A stretch of 64,000 nt of DNA from assembly GCA_027263115.1 (NCBI GenBank), contig GCA_027263115.1_3656.1; one strand, 5' to 3'. Made by a program: the position numbers and the translations under genes. The stretch's first letter is position 1; every line of letters starts with the position of its first letter. This DNA is from a phage. Shown one piece after another: positions 13,807-60,989 of this stretch. Under the pieces are notes generated by a model. It ran no database searches and was not told the DNA's origin. It saw only the letters and a list, made by a program, of their open reading frames with translations.

Positions 13807-14226
13807 ATGAACATTAAATCTAATAATCCGGCATATAGCTTTGATAACGCTTTTTGTCACGGTCCGGCGGCGAAAGGATTCGAAATCGATGGTAAACTAA
13901 TTATTGTCAATGTTGACGGGGAAGAGGTTGCAGTATATCCGGTGGCAGACGTAAAAAGCCGTTTACAATGCCGCATTGATGTTACCGCCTATCAGCTTGA
14001 TCCGGTCCGCATAGTTGCCCTGGTCCTGGAAGAAGAAATTAAAGCCATGCACCATAGCAACAGGTTTATTGGTGACGCTCAGGATAATATGAAGGTGTGC
14101 CGCCATAAAGTTAATGAAGTGCTTAAAGAGTACGGCTATAAAGATCTTATGATCAAACGTGATGAAAAATTCCGGTACCGTAACGACCTGGCAAATCGAA
14201 TCTATGAAATATACGAATCATTATAA
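13807..14226 (+). CDS. hypothetical protein
   Basis: 139 aa, SD AAGAGGTAAAAA; last gene of rightward early array. Confidence 0.6.
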   Translation: MNIKSNNPAYSFDNAFCHGPAAKGFEIDGKLIIVNVDGEEVAVYPVADVKSRLQCRIDVTAYQLDPVRIVALVLEEEIKAMHHSNRFIGDAQDNMKVCRHKVNEVLKEYGYKDLMIKRDEKFRYRNDLANRIYEIYESL

Positions 14227-14244
14227 TTTTTTAACTGAATTATC

Positions 14245-14270
14245 AAGGGGCTTAGGCCCCTTTCTTTTTG
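14245..14270 (+). terminator. rho-independent terminator closing the early array
   Basis: AAGGGGC-loop-GCCCCTT hairpin followed by TCTTTTTG. Confidence 0.65.
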
Positions 14271-14877
14271 TCTGATCTTCCCCCTACCATAAACGGCCCT
14301 ACCTGGCAAGTGGAATAATTGACGAGCCATCAACCCCACACACTGTACAAATATACATGTAAAATAACTATTGCATAACTTTTCATTGTGTGGTAGCAGG
14401 GCTATTTTTACCCGTTTTTCCTTCCAAAATTGCACGTAATGCAGCTATTGCACAAAATTTAACCTGATGCATATCTTCAGTGTCTTGTCAACAACTAAAA
14501 ATCTTTATAAGTCATGCACTTACATAACCACAAAAGCGTGCTCTACGTGAAAAATCGAGTATAACTATAGCCGCCAGATCTCAGAATTTACGTACGCTCA
14601 CCATTCTATAGTCTGCTAAGTATTTATTCCAACCATAGAATAACGGAATAGTCAATACCTGCATAAAATAATTATTCGTGTAAACTGCATAACATAAATC
14701 AGCTTAGGTGTCAACATTTTTCGTAAACAGTCTGAAATTATCACGATGAGTTATCATAAACAGAGAAATCTTTAGTCGTCTAATGTTTACTGTACGTTAC
14801 TATACTAACTGAAATCATTAGATGACTAATAGAAAGATAAGAAATAATTAACAATACAATTATTTTATCTGTAACAA

Positions 14878-15165
14878 TAAGGCAACTATGCAAACGAATG
14901 GCATGGCGCGACGGAGTCGCGACATAATATAAAAGCAGTAACCATCACCCCCGTGATAGTTTGTCTGCAATCTATTAATCAGATCATAGTTGCCTTGTAT
15001 TTAGTTAATCATGACATAACAAGCAAGGCAACTATAGATCTGCTAATAGTTGCCCTGCTTTTATATTATGTCATAGGAACGCCCGAAGGGGTGACCTAGT
15101 CACCTGGCATAGCCAGCGAAAGATTATTAACTTGGTAATAGTTATCATGCAAACGAATGGCATGG
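14878..15165. repeat. nested palindromic region: 18-bp inverted repeat (about 14921-14938 vs 15055-15072), 19-bp direct repeat ATGCAAACGAATGGCATGG x2, AGGCAACTAT/ATAGTTGCC inverted copies
   Basis: Reverse complements and direct copies read directly in the sequence; no ORF with a ribosome-binding site. Confidence 0.65.
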
Positions 15166-15179
15166 CTTATCATCTCTGT

Positions 15180-15420
15180 GTAAACAGTCAATCATGTAAA
15201 CTATTAGATATGTAAACAGTAAAGGGCGTGAACAGTAAGCGAGGGAATAGTAATAGCGTGAATAGTGACAGCGTAAACAGTGACAGCGTAAACAGTCAGG
15301 CATGTCAATTATGTCATATTGTGTCACCATTATGTCACTATTGTGTCACCAGTATGCCCAGTATGTCAATTGAGTCTAAAGTGTCAAAGGTGTCAGACAA
15401 GTTTTTCTCCTCTTTGTCAA
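15180..15420. repeat. tandem short-repeat arrays (GTAAACAGT family incl. 15-mer TGACAGCGTAAACAG x2; then 22-bp TTATGTCAYTATTGTGTCACCA x2 with further TGTCA units)
   Basis: Direct reading; track ORFs here are low-complexity artefacts of the repeats. Confidence 0.7.
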
Positions 15421-16866
15421 GTGCTGCATGAAAAATTTACAAGCTTGTATGGTAGCATTTTTGCGGCCCGTTTACATTCAGTGATGTATGTATAACCCTT
15501 GTTGTGTGGGAGTTTAGACGTCTAGACGGTTGGAAGTCTGCAGGTCAATATCTAATCTATCGGCTGCTAACTATATCCCACACAAATAGTAAGAAATATA
15601 ATTGTTATATGTGTAAACAGTAACTCATGTTATCAATCCCTGTATGGATCGCCAGTGGTGCGCATAATGGGTATTATGTTAAATTGCCCGTAATGATAAC
15701 AGTTCTCACAATGATAGGTATTCTCATTCATCCACACAAAATAGGTTGCAAATGTTGTGCCACTGTGTGAACGGCCTGGCCTATTAATTTCTCTCACTGC
15801 CTCGATATTTGAGGATTGTTATAAGAATGAGAAGTATTCCCATTCCGTCCGCCTGGCAGCGCTCCTGTAGGTCCTGCAAGGACTCTAGCTGAAAGCTAGA
15901 CCCTTCGGGCCTCCCTGTAGGTCAGGTCAAAATCGTGGCAGAACTGAGCCTGTTCAGATATTTCTGGCTGACTCTTCAGGTCTGTGTGGGAAAAGCCAAC
16001 CTCTCCGGCGGGGCAGGGGAGGGAGGTAAATTAAAAAATTTACGTGGTGTATGAAGCGCTCTTCAGGTAAGGCAGGTATTATGTGATGAAACCCTCTTCA
16101 GGCAATGATATTTGTGGGTGTGATATTTGCTGGAAAGCCAGATATGACGGGACTCCCGGCGGGGCAGGGGTAGTACAGACGGGGGAAATATGGGGATGTA
16201 GTTGGGGAAATTGATCAGGCAGGTAGAGTATGGAATATGTTACAAGTATGTTAAATATGGAGGTTGAATATCTGTAGGATTTGTGTGTAAAATCAAAGAC
16301 TTAAGTGGTGTTGTGGTATTTTCTATAAATAATTCAAGTTTAATAGGTAATATTTGCCTCTATCCACTTTGTGTGGTAAACAGATTCAGATGAGATTAGT
16401 TTACAAGTGTATACATAATATACAAATTAAAGATACAAGAAACCCCCCTCCCCCCTTCGGCTACCATTCACCTTTTCCTCTGACTGGTACTTAAACACTT
16501 ATTCAGACTCTTCAGGTTATCACCCATATATCATATGGCAGTGACTGGTGTCCTCCGGCCCCTCTTTCGTCACCCGTCCGCTTCGCCATGCTAATGCCAT
16601 AGCTAATGGTTCGGTTGTTCACCCTGTTCACTCAGGTGTATCTCTATACCCCTTCAAACCGAAGAGAACAGAAAACCCGAATTACTCGGTAAAAGAAAAG
16701 AGAAGAACTTAATTTTATCAGGATAGGCAAGAATGTCAAGGCATGACTGCTCACTAAACAAGCAAACAGTCATGTGTGGGAGGTAAGTGATTGTGGTGGT
16801 AGGAAATTTAGTTGAAAGATGTGTTATAGGTGCTTCCAGCACTTTAGCCGGGCAGCTAATTGTGTG

Positions 16867-17082
16867 TCAGTCCAGCGGTTCATCCTCTACTTCACTGAAA
16901 TCAATGTTCATGGTCTCTTCCCAACCATCGATCTCAGCACAAGAGTGGAGTTCTTTAGGGTTTACTCCCAAAGCCTCAGCAACAGAGTCTATATTTAACA
17001 CCTCTGGCAGGTATGATTCATCGAATTCAAGGTAAATCAGGCCACGAGTGTTGTCAGCTCCACCAAATATCTCTATCTTCAT
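16867..17082 (-). CDS. hypothetical protein (distal end of leftward block)
   Basis: 71 aa, ATG preceded by GAGGAG on minus strand; N-terminus MKIEI like several upstream paralogs. Confidence 0.5.
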   Translation of the reverse strand: MKIEIFGGADNTRGLIYLEFDESYLPEVLNIDSVAEALGVNPKELHSCAEIDGWEETMNIDFSEVEDEPLD

Positions 17083-17203
17083 AAAATCTCCTCTGGGAAT
17101 GAAAGTGTGAACAGGGTTTTATACGTTCTAATGCACAGGAATTATACACGTTTGCCTCTTCAGGCCATGCTTTAGCATGAGGAACCTGTGTGGGCTCGGT
17201 GCT

Positions 17204-17416
17204 TCATAGTCTACCACCTCTGAACTCTTCGTGCTCAGGCATAATAGAGAACCAGATATCTACGATGTCCTCCCACGTCAGGTCATCAGCCTCAGGATCT
17301 GTCTGGGACGAAGATGAAGAGTCCTCAGAATCTAAGTTTTCCTCTTTAACTGGCTCATCCAAGGGACATATGGTCACTCCTTCGGATGTCTCTTCAGATG
17401 CATGTGTGTTGATCAT
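17204..17416 (-). CDS. small acidic hypothetical protein
   Basis: 70 aa, weak SD GGGTGG; very Asp/Glu/Ser-rich. Confidence 0.4.
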   Translation of the reverse strand: MINTHASEETSEGVTICPLDEPVKEENLDSEDSSSSSQTDPEADDLTWEDIVDIWFSIMPEHEEFRGGRL

Positions 17417-17776
17417 GTTCCACCCGTGAGTATTCCGGCAACAGCCGCTATGGAAGTAATGATCATCAGGATCACCACTAAAACTTCAGACAATGTTCTC
17501 ATTGTGTATTCCATATTCTCCAAACTGTGTGTGGATACTATCACGGGAGCGGTAATGTGTCAACAGCAACGCCGCGAGGGTTTGGTTAAAATCCGAGCGT
17601 ATGGTGATTTGGGTCAAAACGGACGTGCGTTCTCGCTACGCTCGAAAGAGAGACTTGTTTGTAGAAAGCTCTTAAACGCTCTGTAACGAGATTATCTGTC
17701 CAAGGTATGCAATCGTGCACCAGATAAAGAAAAGGACGCCACAGAGCGTCCTAGGTGTCTTAAATTTGATATTTTG

Positions 17777-18088
17777 CTATACCCATGATGGCTTATCAAG
17801 GTTGGAGTAGCTGAAAGGTGTCAAAAGGTGACTGTCAAAATCTCTCAAACTATCCAGATCTTTTTCCTCGTCCTGACACCATCTGTGCCTGCATTTATTG
17901 TTGTAGTGCATAGAATGCATGGCGTTCTGCAACTTAACAGGCACAAGTGATTCCGGAGTAGATAGTATTGTTGGGTATGCCAGAACCACCTCAAACAGTG
18001 GAAACACATCGAAACTAAAATCTACCTCTGCAGAGGTTGATGGCATGTAGGAGTATTTAGCCGTCTTTGTAGACATAATCCACCTCAC
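17777..18088 (-). CDS. hypothetical protein
   Basis: 103 aa, ATGA coupling with upstream gene. Confidence 0.5.
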   Translation of the reverse strand: MRWIMSTKTAKYSYMPSTSAEVDFSFDVFPLFEVVLAYPTILSTPESLVPVKLQNAMHSMHYNNKCRHRWCQDEEKDLDSLRDFDSHLLTPFSYSNLDKPSWV

Positions 18089-18467: not shown

Positions 18468-18773
18468 TTATTCTACAGAGCGTTTGAACAGAATGTCTGC
18501 CTCAGACATGTGCTCAACCTCTTCTTCGATTTTAGCGCGACGTTTTTCAGCCTCATAGCGAATATCGAACTCGGTAGCCACCAGAGATTTGATGAATTTA
18601 GGAGAATACAGGTGATCCTGCTTCTCAACGAGAATGATATCCTTAATGGCATCTTTCAGATCTTTAATCTGAAGTTGGAGTTCTACCAGTTCTTCGATTG
18701 TTTTGCGAAGGCGATCACGCTCTGCAGTGTCAGAAGGAAGAGAGGTGAACAGTTCAACTTTAGATTTAGCCAT
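18468..18773 (-). CDS. hypothetical protein
   Basis: 101 aa, coiled-coil-like, tiled array. Confidence 0.55.
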   Translation of the reverse strand: MAKSKVELFTSLPSDTAERDRLRKTIEELVELQLQIKDLKDAIKDIILVEKQDHLYSPKFIKSLVATEFDIRYEAEKRRAKIEEEVEHMSEADILFKRSVE

Positions 18774-54659: not shown

Positions 54660-55010
54660 ATGAAAGATGGGGATAAGCTGCTATATCTTAAAGTCCCCCT
54701 TGAAATACTATCTATGTCAAAAGTTTTGAATGACACAACTGGGGAGGTTGTTGTTCTTGACTTGTATGACAAGATTGTATACTGCTACCTGCACAACTGG
54801 TATAAGCTTGGAGGAAATTCCCGCTTCACACCAAGCACAAGGAAAATTGCAGCAGATGTTGGGATAAAGAAAACAAAAGCAGCAGCGTGCGTTAAAACTT
54901 TAGAATGTGCAGGAGTGGTTGAAACATCCACACAAGGGAGAGGTAAAAGATGCACATTTTCCAAAGTTTTGCCACCAGAAGAAGTTATTCGAATGTCAAC
55001 AACTGGTTAG
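54660..55010 (+). CDS. putative winged-helix DNA-binding protein
   Basis: 116 aa; SD AAGGAG; HTH-like TRKIAADVGIKKTKAAACVKTLECAGVVE; iteron array directly downstream. Confidence 0.5.
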   Translation: MKDGDKLLYLKVPLEILSMSKVLNDTTGEVVVLDLYDKIVYCYLHNWYKLGGNSRFTPSTRKIAADVGIKKTKAAACVKTLECAGVVETSTQGRGKRCTFSKVLPPEEVIRMSTTG

Positions 55011-55083
55011 ACCAGTAAAAACTTAAATATCTGTACTATAAGGGTTTGTATGTTTTATGTTCACCATGGAACAGAAACTATTA

Positions 55084-55167
55084 ACTGTCCGTGATACGGA
55101 CACCACTGTCCGTCACGCGGACACATCTGCCCGTAATACGGACACTAACTGTCCGTGATACGGACAC
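55084..55167. repeat. four tandem 21-bp palindromic iterons (core GTCCGTnAYRCGGACAC)
   Basis: Each unit carries GTCCG/CGGAC inverted half-sites; followed by AT-rich palindromic DNA. Confidence 0.75.
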
Positions 55168-55649
55168 ATAAAGAATATAACTAAAATAACTAAATAATAA
55201 AAAATAAAAGATCTAGTACTTATGGTACTAAGTACATATACTTAACTTATGTAGAATATACTAGATCCTAAGTACCATGTTTTAAATTTATTACTTTCTA
55301 TAGGTAGTGTCGGCCCTTCATTGGCACTCGCCTACGAGGGGCGAGATGCCGGGCCTCCATAGTGCACACATGCAGGTCTGTTAACATGTGTGGGAGCGAA
55401 GCGGCGCAGGCCAAAGGCCGAGCACTAATGTGGACCACCGACGAAAGCTTGCCAGCGCCGTAAGGAGTCGGTTGAGAGCCTCCCGCGCGAGTTTGGATAA
55501 AGTTTATGTGTGGAAACGGACAATGAGGCCCCTAAATCGCTCCACAGCCATATAAACTATACCAAGTAAGGCAATCGCACCAGTTTGATAGAAAAGCTCG
55601 TTACAAAGCGATACAGCGAGTTTTTCTATAACTTGAAGAGGAGGCAGCT

Positions 55650-57526: not shown

Positions 57527-57601
57527 GCCCTGTTAGCTTAGTGGATAAAGCAGCGGCCTTCTAAGCCGTTGACACTGGTTCGAGTCCAGTACGGGGTGCC
57601 A
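57527..57601 (+). tRNA. tRNA-Arg (anticodon TCT)
   Basis: Hand-folded cloverleaf: 7-bp acceptor, D-arm GCTT/AAGC, anticodon loop CTTCTAA, T-loop TTCGAGT, encoded CCA. Confidence 0.75.
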
Positions 57602-57605
57602 AATT

Positions 57606-57692
57606 GGGGAGTTATCCCGTAGAGGTAGCGGTGTAGACTGTAAATCTATTGTCATTGCGACTCGGGTGGTTCGACTCCACCACTCCCCACCA
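57606..57692 (+). tRNA. tRNA-Tyr (anticodon GTA), long variable arm
   Basis: Acceptor GGGGAGT/ACTCCCC, anticodon loop CTGTAAA, T-loop TTCGACT, CCA; 87 nt. Confidence 0.65.
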
Positions 57693-57805
57693 AATTTATA
57701 TTTTAGATGCATAAATAATACAGATAATGGCATTGATATTTATCGTCGTTTATACTAGTCACTAACTGCTCGAAAATCAGTGTCATTATCAGTATAATTT
57801 ACAAA

Positions 57806-57896
57806 GGAGGGTAGGGAGCAATGGTGCTCAAGCGGTCTTGAAAACCGTCCCATTGAGGATGACTCGATGATGGTTCGATTCCATTACTCTCCGCCA
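57806..57896 (+). tRNA. tRNA-Ser (anticodon TGA), long variable arm
   Basis: Acceptor GGAGGGT/ACTCTCC, anticodon loop CTTGAAA, T-loop TTCGATT, CCA; 91 nt. Confidence 0.65.
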
Positions 57897-57994
57897 CATT
57901 GTTGACCTTGTAATTAAGCGAAAGCCGGAAGCAGAACCGGATTATCAAATGTTACAGTCGTCATCGCCGACTAGCAACATGGTCAACATACTGA

Positions 57995-58093
57995 GCTAGG
58001 TAAGCCCTTTGGCAAGGGCGAGGATTTTTAATCCTGAAAATAGACGAGGTAGTCGTTGAATACATAGATGGTTCGATTCCATCACCTAGCACC
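57995..58093 (+). tRNA. atypical tRNA-like element (possible tRNA-Lys TTT with about 25-nt insertion, or pseudo-tRNA)
   Basis: Perfect 7-bp acceptor GCTAGGT/ACCTAGC, canonical T-arm GATGG-TTCGATT-CCATC, D-arm GCCC/GGGC, TTT-containing loop; about 99 nt; no encoded CCA. Confidence 0.35.
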
Positions 58094-58098
58094 TTTTT

Positions 58099-58174
58099 GC
58101 TGATGTAGCACAATTGGTAGTGCAATTGATTTGTAATCAATAGGTTGCAGGTTCAAGTCCTGCCATCAGCACCA
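58099..58174 (+). tRNA. tRNA-Thr (anticodon TGT)
   Basis: Acceptor GCTGATG/CATCAGC, D-arm GCAC/GTGC, anticodon loop TTTGTAA, T-loop TTCAAGT, CCA. Confidence 0.75.
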
Positions 58175-58175
58175 T

Positions 58176-58250
58176 GGCCCTGTAGCTGGAAGGTTCAAGC
58201 AAGCGACTCATAATCGCCAGACGGTGGTTCAATTCCACCCAGGGCCACCA
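58176..58250 (+). tRNA. tRNA-Met or tRNA-Ile2 (anticodon CAT), elongator-type
   Basis: Acceptor GGCCCTG/CAGGGCC with paired 1-72, anticodon loop CTCATAA, T-loop TTCAATT, CCA. Confidence 0.65.
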
Positions 58251-58261
58251 AATAGTAGATA

Positions 58262-58338
58262 CTCCGCGTAGCTCAGCTTGGTAGAGCGCCTGATTTGGGA
58301 TCAGGAGGTCGAGTGTTCGAATCACTCCGTGGAGACCA
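58262..58338 (+). tRNA. tRNA-Pro (anticodon TGG)
   Basis: C1-G72 acceptor, D-arm GCTC-AGCTTGGTAG-AGC, anticodon loop TTTGGGA, T-loop TTCGAAT, CCA. Confidence 0.75.
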
Positions 58339-59158: not shown

Positions 59159-59442
59159 GAGTTGCTACACTGTTTATTGCGTGCTTGTTATTATGCGGGT
59201 GTGCAACCAGTGTTGAGAAAGAATACAAGATTGACCCTCCAGATGTAGGAAGGTTGATTGTTAAACCCCCAGAAGGTGCCATGAAACCACCTGCTAAAGC
59301 TATGCCTTTGAAGAAAGGTGCGCCAGATGCAGTGAACTCTGGCATTATGAGGGATAATAATCTGTCTTGTAGCAATGATAGAGCTAAATTGATCATTTTG
59401 CAAGACTATATTAGAACACTGTTTCCAAAGGAGAGAGGTTAA
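59155..59442 (+). CDS. o-spanin (Rz1-like proline-rich lipoprotein)
   Basis: 95 aa; signal with LLLCGC lipobox-like site; Pro-rich DPPDVGRLIVKPPEGAMKPPAKAMP; SD CAGGAGGA. Confidence 0.6.
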   Translation: MRVATLFIACLLLCGCATSVEKEYKIDPPDVGRLIVKPPEGAMKPPAKAMPLKKGAPDAVNSGIMRDNNLSCSNDRAKLIILQDYIRTLFPKERG

Positions 59443-60989
59443 TGTCTAAGATTTACGGACCGTGTTCTGAAAAGCAGAAGATGATCCTAGAAAACGATGC
59501 AGATATTTTGGTAATCGGCGGTGCCGCAGGGTCTGGCAAGTCGTTCCTCTTGCAGTTGATGCCACTTAAAATTATTGATGACCCCCACAGCTCTGTGGTT
59601 ATGTTCCGAAGAACAACCCCACAGTTGGAAGGTGAGGGTGGACTATGGCCTAAAGCAGTAGCTATTTATAGTGATCTGCCTGAAAACATTAAGCCAAAGT
59701 TCAGAGAGAAGGATCATAAGTTCATTTTTCCACGGTTTGATCCGAACACTGGCAAGTGGGATAGGAGCAAAAAGGGAGCTGTTGTAAAATACTGCCACAT
59801 GGAGTATGTACAAGATAAGCTTAACCATCAAGGGCTTGAGTACACCATGGTTTGCTTCGATGAGGGAACGCAGTTCGAATGGGAGCAGATAGACTATCTG
59901 ATGTCTCGTCTGCGATCTCAGTCAAAGTATCCATCAAGAATGGTTATCAGCTGTAACCCCGATTCAGAACACATGCTTGCCAAACTGGTTAGATGGTGGT
60001 TGGACGATGAAGGGTATCCAGATCCGGAGAAATGCGGTAAGAAAAGATATTTTATCCGACGCGACGGTGAATTTATTTGGGGAGACTCTAAGGAAGAGTT
60101 GATAGAGAAATACACCACGGTTAACGGACTGGGTGTAGAGATCAAGCCAAGACCGTTGTCATTCTCGTTCATAGGCGCAACAATATTCGATAATCCTGTC
60201 TGTTTGAGAGACAACCCAGAATACCTTGCTTTCCTCGAAGGTCTACCAGAGCTGGAAAAAGCTCAGCTTCTCCATGGTAACTGGTTTGCAAAGCCTGAGG
60301 GTGCAAACTATTTTCAAAGATCTTTCCTTCGTGATGCCGATAGAGTACCCCTTGGATCAGTATCTTGCAGGGCATGGGATAAGGCAGGAACCGAGAGAAC
60401 TTCCGGCAATAAATTTCCTGACTTTACTGCCAGTATTAAGGTAAGTAAAGATAGCGACGGCTTTTATTACCTGTCAGGGGATTATTGTCCTGAAAACGTG
60501 GATGACGGGAGGTATTCCACAGGTCTGGAAGGCAAGTTCTGTAAAAAGGCTGGTGAACGAGATGTGATCATCAGGAAACAGGCGCAGTTTGATGGTGATG
60601 ATTGTATAATCGTATTCTCTGTGGACCCCGGTCAGGCAGGTAAGAGTGAGTTCTTAACCTCATCCAGATCCTTGCTCGCAGAAGGGTTCAGGGTTGAAGA
60701 AGATCCAATGCCTTCCAACAAGTCTAAACTGACAAGGTTCTCACCTTTTGCCAATCTTGCCCAACAAGGGATGGTGAGGATTGTAAAATCCAGTTTCCAT
60801 CCTGATACTCTGGAAGCATTTCTGACCGAACTTGAAAAATTCAACGGGGAAAGATCAACATTTAACAGAAAAGACGACTGGGCTGACTGTGTAGCTTCTG
60901 CAATTAATTTCCTGGAGAAAGAGGAGGTAGCACTTCCTTGTGTGATTCCATCAATCTCATCACCCTCTATGTTCAAGCGTTTTATCTAA
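59442..60989 (+). CDS. terminase large subunit
   Basis: 515 aa; N-terminal Walker A VIGGAAGSGKSF; position before portal gene; ATGA coupling with o-spanin. Confidence 0.8.
   Translation: MSKIYGPCSEKQKMILENDADILVIGGAAGSGKSFLLQLMPLKIIDDPHSSVVMFRRTTPQLEGEGGLWPKAVAIYSDLPENIKPKFREKDHKFIFPRFDPNTGKWDRSKKGAVVKYCHMEYVQDKLNHQGLEYTMVCFDEGTQFEWEQIDYLMSRLRSQSKYPSRMVISCNPDSEHMLAKLVRWWLDDEGYPDPEKCGKKRYFIRRDGEFIWGDSKEELIEKYTTVNGLGVEIKPRPLSFSFIGATIFDNPVCLRDNPEYLAFLEGLPELEKAQLLHGNWFAKPEGANYFQRSFLRDADRVPLGSVSCRAWDKAGTERTSGNKFPDFTASIKVSKDSDGFYYLSGDYCPENVDDGRYSTGLEGKFCKKAGERDVIIRKQAQFDGDDCIIVFSVDPGQAGKSEFLTSSRSLLAEGFRVEEDPMPSNKSKLTRFSPFANLAQQGMVRIVKSSFHPDTLEAFLTELEKFNGERSTFNRKDDWADCVASAINFLEKEEVALPCVIPSISSPSMFKRFI

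Follow-up and report, generated by a model that had tools for sequence, protein, structure and literature searches.

In a stretch of 64,000 nucleotides of phage DNA (contig GCA_027263115.1_3656.1 of assembly GCA_027263115.1; hereafter the window), two arrays of short direct repeats lie side by side at 15178-15395, and the last unit of the second array ends exactly where a sequence equivalent to the direct terminal repeat (DTR) of vequintavirus virion DNA begins. This part of the window is 91-96% identical to about 120 rV5-like phages (Vequintavirus, with genomes of ~137 kb). We consider it very probable that the arrays belong to the terminal, or junction, region in a genome with short DTRs; the fuller reading, in which arrays flanking the junction are bound by protein in the service of packaging, we hold to be about evenly balanced between true and false. 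The position of the arrays at the terminal-repeat boundary is the new point, the gene-free stretch in which they lie being already known. An earlier note, made from the sequence alone, had described the repeats at 15180-15420, and apart from small details the sequence is as it said; its characterisation of them as iteron-like, spacer-less short repeats was right, and among the settings that it proposed (origins, partition sites, or the vicinity of concatemer-processing sites at genome ends) the last is supported by the position of the arrays against the boundary of the 458/459-bp terminal repeat. The features on which the argument rests are the following.

15178..15302, + strand: array A, eight in-register units with a period of 15-16 bp and the core GTRAAYNRT
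15180, 15196, 15212, 15228, 15243, 15258, 15273 and 15288, + strand: starts of the units of array A, with the core variants GTAAACAGT (four units), GTAAACTAT, GTGAACAGT, GGGAATAGT and GTGAATAGT
15303..15395, + strand: array B, ten in-register units with the core TGTCA, in a 9-11-bp register with a mean period of 9.8 bp
15303, 15312, 15322, 15333, 15344, 15355, 15364, 15373, 15382 and 15391, + strand: starts of the units of array B
15396..15853: sequence equivalent to the vequintavirus virion DTR, placed on the basis of the relatives' records
14723..14731, + strand: exact A-type core GTAAACAGT standing alone, upstream of the arrays
15613..15621, + strand: isolated exact A-type core GTAAACAGT, within the terminal repeat

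The two arrays abut and all their units are on the + strand. In array A the 9-nt cores are separated by spacers of 6-7 nt that are mutually unrelated, and in array B two of the ten units are degenerate (TGCCC at 15355 and AGTCT at 15373); Tandem Repeats Finder calls repeats at 15179-15296 (period 15-16) and 15308-15368 (period 11/22). The clustering of GTAAACAGT and its one-mismatch variants, which the earlier note had claimed, was borne out by shuffle counts and Poisson expectation. Exact GTAAACAGT occurs six times, at 14723, 15180, 15212, 15273, 15288 and 15613, always on the + strand and within 900 bp, and nowhere else in the 64-kb window outside 14723-15621; allowing up to one mismatch there are 32 matches compared with 17.1 +/- 4.1 in shuffled sequences, none of 100 shuffles reaching 32. 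One of the one-mismatch copies is inverted and lies upstream of the arrays (14782-14790, - strand). The degenerate core GTRAAYNRT has seven matches in 15175-15300 against 0.019 expected (Poisson P ~1e-16), every other 125-bp stretch of the window holding at most two, and TGTCA is found nine times on the + strand and not once on the - strand of 15300-15420 against 0.18 expected (P ~5e-13), the runner-up 120-bp stretch of the window holding three. Both clusters are far above what base composition predicts. The 15-mer TGACAGCGTAAACAG is, as had been stated, an exact tandem duplicate (15266-15280 and 15281-15295). A second duplication, described as one of a 22-mer, is present as such, but its copies measure 21 and 22 nt (15308-15328 and 15329-15350) and differ by a one-base indel and not by a Y substitution; likewise the arrays run through 15395 and not to 15420, since the TGTCA at 15415, beyond array B, belongs to the terminal repeat. 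That this is no CRISPR array is confirmed by cores of 5-9 nt and spacers of 4-7 nt, as against CRISPR repeats of 23-50 nt with unique spacers of similar length.

The cores are better preserved than what lies between them: the identity among in-register units, degenerate ones included, is 0.81 in cores versus 0.39 in spacers in the window and 0.71 versus 0.34 across 12 genomes, a contrast that is partly circular and somewhat inflated, because the register was anchored on motif hits. This comparison replaced a motif-anchored information-content logo, which was dropped as circular.

The terminal repeat is defined by several relatives. In the EdH4 record positions 1-459 recur without mismatch (100% identity) at 135573-136031 and correspond to window 15853-15396, and short terminal redundancies of 458 bp have been published for EdH4 and HdK5 (PMC6563267). 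The Gotham record annotates 1-459 as repeat_region, and the records of Gotham and YN3 each match the query twice, consistent with one copy per end. The records of EdH4, YN3, Gotham and four bov phages start exactly at window 15853, and that of Pr121LW starts exactly at window 15396; the records with these starts come from several submitters. For Klebsiella phage KPP-1 a 514-bp repeat was defined by coverage and PhageTerm (PMC9862379), and its array-side start aligns with the window (ACACAATTCTCTCTCCTTGTCAAG...AAATTTACAA versus GACAAGTTTTTCTCCTCTTTGTCAAG...AAATTTACAA) to about 2 nt. The last TGTCA unit (15391-15395) ends at the base directly before the terminal-repeat equivalent, with a gap of 0 nt, and thus, given the exact repeat of EdH4 and the record starts, just before a virion-end position. 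By homology, the ends of this phage are probably the same as those of its relatives, 15395/15396 and 15853/15854 being the likely positions of the end-forming cuts; in mature DNA the arrays would then lie immediately inside one copy of the terminal repeat, and in concatemers they would form one flank of the junction.

In an 11-genome alignment scored in 50-nt bins, 15396-15853 is conserved at 0.89-0.98, and the array bins reach only 0.25-0.58, with up to 56% gaps, as against 0.89-0.98 in the surrounding non-coding DNA and the repeat. The other boundary of the repeat looks different: on the 15854 side there is no array, just scattered CTCTTCAGG copies and a hairpin-rich segment of 50 bp (15864-15913), flanked by the direct repeat CTCCTGTAGGTC / CCCTGTAGGTC, which is present in five of the 11 genomes and cleanly absent from the other six.

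The distribution of the arrays was followed in 14 vequintavirus genomes (13 distinct sequences), from which the segment between the anchor ATGCAAACGAATGGCATGGC and the repeat start GACAAGTTTTTCTCC was cut; the relatives were taken individually from GenBank phage records, a 32-nt pattern in IMG/VR having given two loci only. In all 14 genomes A-type units, spaced at 15-16 bp, come before B-type units, spaced at 9-11 bp, and the two types share one strand; the junction ...TGTCA/GACAAG is invariant throughout, and the second copy of ATGCAAACGAATGGCATGGC is conserved as the left anchor. The segment between measures 112-237 nt, depending on the genome; one to nine A units and two to eight B units can be recognised in it. 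In the complete genome of rV5 (137,947 bp) the GTRAAYNRT cluster is unique (eight copies in 160 bp, at most two elsewhere), and the TGTCA cluster is weaker, with five copies versus four in the best other window. The arrays thus look like sequences of fast turnover in which presence, polarity, core and last unit are maintained. Absence from relatives with the same gene order, which the earlier note had named as evidence against its reading, does not apply within the genus but does apply beyond it, where representatives of Mydovirus and Seunavirus have no arrays.

The arrays are embedded in a stretch that is approached from one side by a block of small genes on the + strand and from the other by a long - strand block, the two converging on it, and which holds two further features that may belong with them.

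14227..16866: 2.6-kb stretch without credible genes, containing the arrays, a palindrome, 20-nt repeats and the terminal-repeat equivalent
14921..15072: long palindrome, imperfect overall but with outer arms that match perfectly over 18 nt, enclosing ATAGTTGCC/GGCAACTAT hairpins; array A follows after ~100 nt
14888..14907 and 15147-15166, + strand: exact 20-nt direct repeat ATGCAAACGAATGGCATGGC on either side of the palindrome, with 11 nt between its second copy and array A

The rV5 genome paper draws the stretch as a grey 'non-coding' box and reports a change of GC skew there, which its authors ascribe to the switch in transcription direction (PMC3606486); a few GenBank records carry an automatically found 'repeat_region' within it. 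Our literature search found no earlier description of these vequintavirus repeats, nor functional work on the arrays that flank the terminal repeat of phage T7. Folded as single-stranded DNA, 14860-15175 is far more stable than shuffled sequence (z = -9.0), although it is partly variable among relatives (conservation 0.54-0.79). The long palindrome is probably part of the same cis-acting terminal region as the arrays, and it might act in end processing, as a cruciform or hairpin, or else terminate transcription from both sides. The arrays themselves fold as a single strand no better than shuffles (z = +0.26) and Rfam has no match at E<=1 in 14200-17800, on which grounds we rejected a structured non-coding RNA; coding DNA was rejected because an array of period 11 is incompatible with a reading frame, and the two overlapping open reading frames (ORFs) at 15145-15330 (-) and 15228-15431 (+) are unannotated in most relatives. 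The ORFs that flank the arrays have no Pfam domains and belong only to PHROG families of unknown function.

In the replicating concatemer the order would be the last + strand gene, the terminator, the long palindrome, array A, array B, the 458-bp repeat and the rest of the genome, and one of the two end-forming cuts would fall exactly between the last TGTCA unit and the repeat (15395/15396). The arrays would be phased binding sites for one or two sequence-specific proteins, the candidate binder being a putative small terminase or an accessory maturation factor. Array B, with about one site per helical turn, would present all its sites on one face of the DNA, and the spacing in array A would correspond to 1.5 helical turns; this helical spacing, together with the strict polarity and the conserved cores, points to cooperative binding of protein beside the cut. 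The resulting nucleoprotein complex would mark the concatemer junction and might help to position or stimulate the cutting and/or the duplication of the terminal repeat, while array units would be gained and lost by slippage or unequal exchange, and the long palindrome may correspond in function to the hairpin proposed for T7. On this reading, proteins would bind the array units and the binding would serve packaging, the arrays being accessory and genus-specific.

Several points weigh against this reading. The neighbourhood of the large terminase gene (59442-60989) has no annotated small terminase. The placement of the terminal repeat on this phage rests on homology to relatives, Korf et al., who described EdH4, state no method for its ends, and two reports call vequintaviruses circularly permuted or headful by PhageTerm, although the bov records behind that call were later re-issued and now start at the same boundary. 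Array A is nearly lost in phage navn, where one unit is left. The terminal repeats of KPP-1, PVP-SE1 and 4MG were examined and have no arrays, and the ends of Phapecoctavirus Schickermooser and of the myovirus ICP1 show at most two or three weak repeats, so that ends of this kind can in general be formed without arrays. The partial circularity of the contrast between cores and spacers has to be added to this list, and for the comparable arrays of T7 we know of no demonstrated function.

The alternative that survives best is that the arrays are a neutral, slippage-prone minisatellite, produced by tandem duplication near the repeat, for instance during nicking, strand displacement and repair, and tolerated as a by-product. 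We regard this as rather unlikely, but it accounts well for a copy number that varies widely (112-237 nt) though the flanks are ~95% identical, for the very recent exact duplications of 15 and 21/22 nt, for the near disappearance of array A from navn, and for sister genera that have a homologous repeat start without arrays; in T7, moreover, the arrays have been reported to be dispensable. It does not predict that cores are conserved and spacers randomised (0.71 versus 0.34), which is not expected from neutral decay, nor that both arrays are kept in 14 of 14 genomes with strict polarity and helical phasing, nor that the last unit never varies. At its other boundary the repeat has one simple 50-bp indel and no array, so proximity to a DNA end alone does not generate arrays.

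Comparison beyond the genus bears on how the arrays may have arisen. KPP-1 (Mydovirus) and PVP-SE1 and 4MG (Seunavirus) share with the window the first ~60 nt of the repeat and a hairpin motif upstream of it; in KPP-1 and PVP-SE1 these hairpins read ATAGTTAC...GTAACTAT and are similar to those in the palindrome of the window. Because the arrays are missing from these sister genera with a homologous repeat start, they are not a universal cut signal. KPP-1 and 4MG have instead a single composite GTGTAAACTGTCAAG ~190 nt upstream of the repeat, in which an A core overlaps a B core, and with arrays in 14 of 14 vequintaviruses and in none of the Mydovirus and Seunavirus phages that share the repeat start, they are plausibly a Vequintavirus-specific elaboration, amplified from one ancestral composite site (GTAAACTGTCAAG) that sister genera kept once. 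A bolder version, which is speculative and which we think unlikely to hold in full, would make the arrays a fast-evolving loading platform, derived from a single GTAAACTGTCAAG site, for a putative small terminase or repeat-duplication factor, with copy number and unit sequence tuning end cutting and packaging or making them strain-specific, possibly in coupling to late rolling-circle replication. The ends of Schickermooser, with a repeat of 329 bp, lie in a gene-free gap too. As a separate observation, the repeat starts resemble each other across the lineages compared (the window, KPP-1, PVP-SE1, 4MG and Schickermooser: GACAAGTTTTTCTCC, ACACAATTCTCTCTCC, AGCAAGTTCTCTT), and ICP1 has GAGCAAGTTG at its 891 terminus (881-900); this shared sequence may be a common cut-site motif of the terminase.

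It is quite improbable, in our judgement, that the arrays are origin iterons that open A/T-rich DNA, or a start of late rolling-circle replication coupled to packaging as has been proposed for ICP1. They are direct repeats in gene-free DNA and have an A/T-rich stretch at 14650-14950 (GC 0.32-0.34) in the neighbourhood, a turning point of GC skew has been reported here for rV5 (PMC3606486), and ICP1, which has related replication proteins, has termini 461 bp apart in a 1.3-kb gap without ORFs, with a rolling-circle origin placed nearby (PMC7145576). Yet an adjacent initiator gene is lacking, the flanking ORFs being devoid of Pfam domains, and the arrays and the DNA that immediately follows them have a GC content of 0.39-0.41; one has to go ~300 nt upstream, past the palindrome, to reach A/T-rich DNA (GC 0.32). 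The authors of the rV5 paper tie the skew change to the switch in transcription direction (PMC3606486), and ICP1 itself has no such arrays. The window arrays share with the origin iterons of lambda O, P1 RepA and P4 alpha the arrangement as same-strand direct repeats in non-coding DNA; they differ in having units far shorter than the classical 17-22 bp and in lacking both a neighbouring initiator gene and an A/T-rich unwinding element directly alongside.

The sole initiator-like protein of the window is encoded 39 kb away and has iterons and an A/T-rich tract of its own. It is a winged-helix protein of 116 amino acids (54660-55010; PHROG 'replication initiation protein', with Pfam HTH_36/DUF6945 just below cut-offs), annotated in rV5 only as a GntR-like regulator (ORF 79), and after its gene come four 21-bp inverted-repeat units, CTGTCCGTGATACGGACAC (55083-55169), and then an A/T-rich tract (55160-55300). 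The segment 54660-55300 is, judging by these features, a better candidate origin than the arrays. The suggestion of an origin at the arrays is weakened accordingly, and the earlier proposal that this winged-helix protein binds the arrays is unlikely, as it adjoins its own, different repeats.

That the arrays are a cluster of leftward promoters or a binding platform for RNA polymerase is very improbable. Four B units do read TTGACA, the sigma-70 -35 element, on the - strand (TGTCAA at 15303, 15364, 15382 and, counting the copy in the repeat, 15415), and a promoter scan gives two - strand sites (15387-15360 and 15369-15340) with 10/12 matches each, but their -10 elements are poor (CATACT, CACAAT), the B units of relatives mostly read TGTCAC or TGTCAT rather than TGTCAA, and array A is left unexplained; transcription to the left would run antisense to the + strand genes that converge here, and the sole ORF on its way (14202-14435) has no family hit. 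To a partition (centromere-like) site bound by a ParB-type protein, the remaining setting proposed in the earlier note, we give practically no credence: all that speaks for it is the general likeness of short direct repeats to centromere arrays, whereas the phage is a strictly lytic 137-kb myovirus (PMC3606486), the ORFs examined have no ParA/ParB-like domains, the flanking ones no Pfam hits, and a position at the virion end is unparalleled in partition systems.

The preferred reading, arrays at the junction that serve packaging, has its closest analogue in phage T7. In the T7 sequence 12 CCTAAAG-like units with a 13-bp period extend from 175 to 332, starting 15 nt after the 160-bp repeat, a looser CCTAAAG set precedes the right-hand repeat, and copies occur inside the repeat at 17, 41, 60 and 94; these arrays were reportedly named SRL and SRR by Dunn and Studier in 1983. 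Both phages have same-strand arrays of regular spacing, 13 bp in T7 and 15-16 and ~10 bp here, built on cores of 7 nt in T7 and of 9 and 5 nt in the window; the arrays lie 0-15 nt from the boundary of a short exact DTR, and stray cores are found inside the repeat (here at 15613 and 15415). The differences are that the T7 arrays have no sequence homology to those of the window, that T7 is a podovirus with its own RNA polymerase and not a 137-kb myovirus, that it has one motif on both flanks where the window has, on a single flank, two motifs that differ in period, and that its arrays lie near early promoters, whereas here the transcription units converge on the repeat. We therefore see the window arrays as a new myovirus example of an architectural class, short repeats flanking a DTR, and not as members of a homology family.

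Repeated terminase-binding elements beside a cut are also known from cosB of lambda (R1-R3 with IHF), from pac of P1 (seven TGATCA/G hexamers around the cut) and from the pacL and pacR boxes of SPP1. The proposed role of the window arrays would resemble these sites in that several short, helically phased repeats directly beside the terminase cut act as a loading platform. Unlike here, however, the ends of lambda, P1 and SPP1 are cohesive or headful-permuted and not exact DTRs, the binders Nu1, PacA and G1P are encoded next to their sites, whereas here no recognisable small terminase is found near the large terminase, and cosB and pac sites are conserved and essential, whereas the window arrays are hypervariable and missing from sister genera.

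ICP1 is named in the rV5 paper among the closest homologs of its DNA polymerase and primase-helicase (PMC3606486); it is likewise a myovirus, and its PhageTerm termini at 431 and 891 are 461 bp apart, the size of the repeat here, in a 1.3-kb gene-free gap (PMC7145576). It differs in having no tandem arrays and in surrounding genes that are divergent and not convergent, and its authors read the site as a pac site with headful packaging (PMC7145576). The spacing of 461 bp between the termini suggests a short DTR rather than the published pac/headful scheme. Phage T5, too, has a non-coding region that is associated with a terminal repeat and rich in repeats and palindromes, its injection-stop-signal region. 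This one is located within a 10-kb repeat and functions in a two-step entry of the DNA, of which there is no sign here.

Two proteins of the neighbourhood were considered as binders of the arrays. The 139-amino-acid neighbour (13807-14226, +) was rejected, because EdH4, Alma, FV3 and HMD-6 have arrays without the gene. Phapecoctaviruses, phAPEC8-like phages of another subfamily, have it at ~90% identity but with different flanking DNA, and in Schickermooser (NC_048196, 2019-2438) the homologue likewise closes the row of genes, with ~0.9 kb of non-coding DNA and the 329-bp terminal repeat beyond it; it looks like an exchangeable, end-proximal accessory gene. A regulator-like protein of 101 amino acids (18468-18773, -) is not specifically linked to the arrays, as it occurs in genera without them. 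It belongs to phrog_639 ('transcriptional regulator'), is labelled a double-stranded DNA-binding protein in some records, and is found with at least 99% amino-acid identity in 115 phage records and with 42-60% identity in all other genera of the Vequintavirinae.

Some other elements of the window deserve mention. Within the terminal repeat, AGACGTCTAGACGG at 15516-15529 resembles two tandem 'met boxes' of MetJ (AGACGTCT), which may be a coincidence. To its right, 15854-16700 contains G-rich/C-rich runs (16005-16030 and 16440-16455) and five copies of CTCTTCAGG, and a strong sigma-70-like promoter on the - strand (16712-16739; TTGACA, 16-nt spacer, TAAAAT, extended -10 TG; 11/12 matches) points leftward over ~850 nt of gene-free DNA toward the terminal repeat; it may yield a non-coding transcript or drive transcription across the junction. 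Far from the arrays, in the tRNA cluster at 57527-58338, ARAGORN calls a 99-nt tRNA with a four-base anticodon (atcc) at 57995-58093, for which the Rfam match is weak (37.5 bits) and which may be intron-containing or degenerate.

To our knowledge, little is understood so far of the way in which phages with exact DTRs select their ends and duplicate them. Collections for phage therapy and biocontrol commonly include rV5-like phages, whose records are linearised at arbitrary points; the position of the boundary between the arrays and the terminal repeat explains why assemblies break here, and offers a simple rule for orienting vequintavirus genomes. The arrays also provide a concrete cis element of 220 bp that can be deleted, swapped or used as bait for the end-recognition protein. 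That arrays in the style of T7 arose independently beside the terminal repeat of a myovirus argues that such an arrangement is no mere peculiarity of T7. Should the arrays indeed be a loading platform that grew from one ancestral site, no cis element for end formation would have been defined earlier in this large, therapeutically used group of phages.

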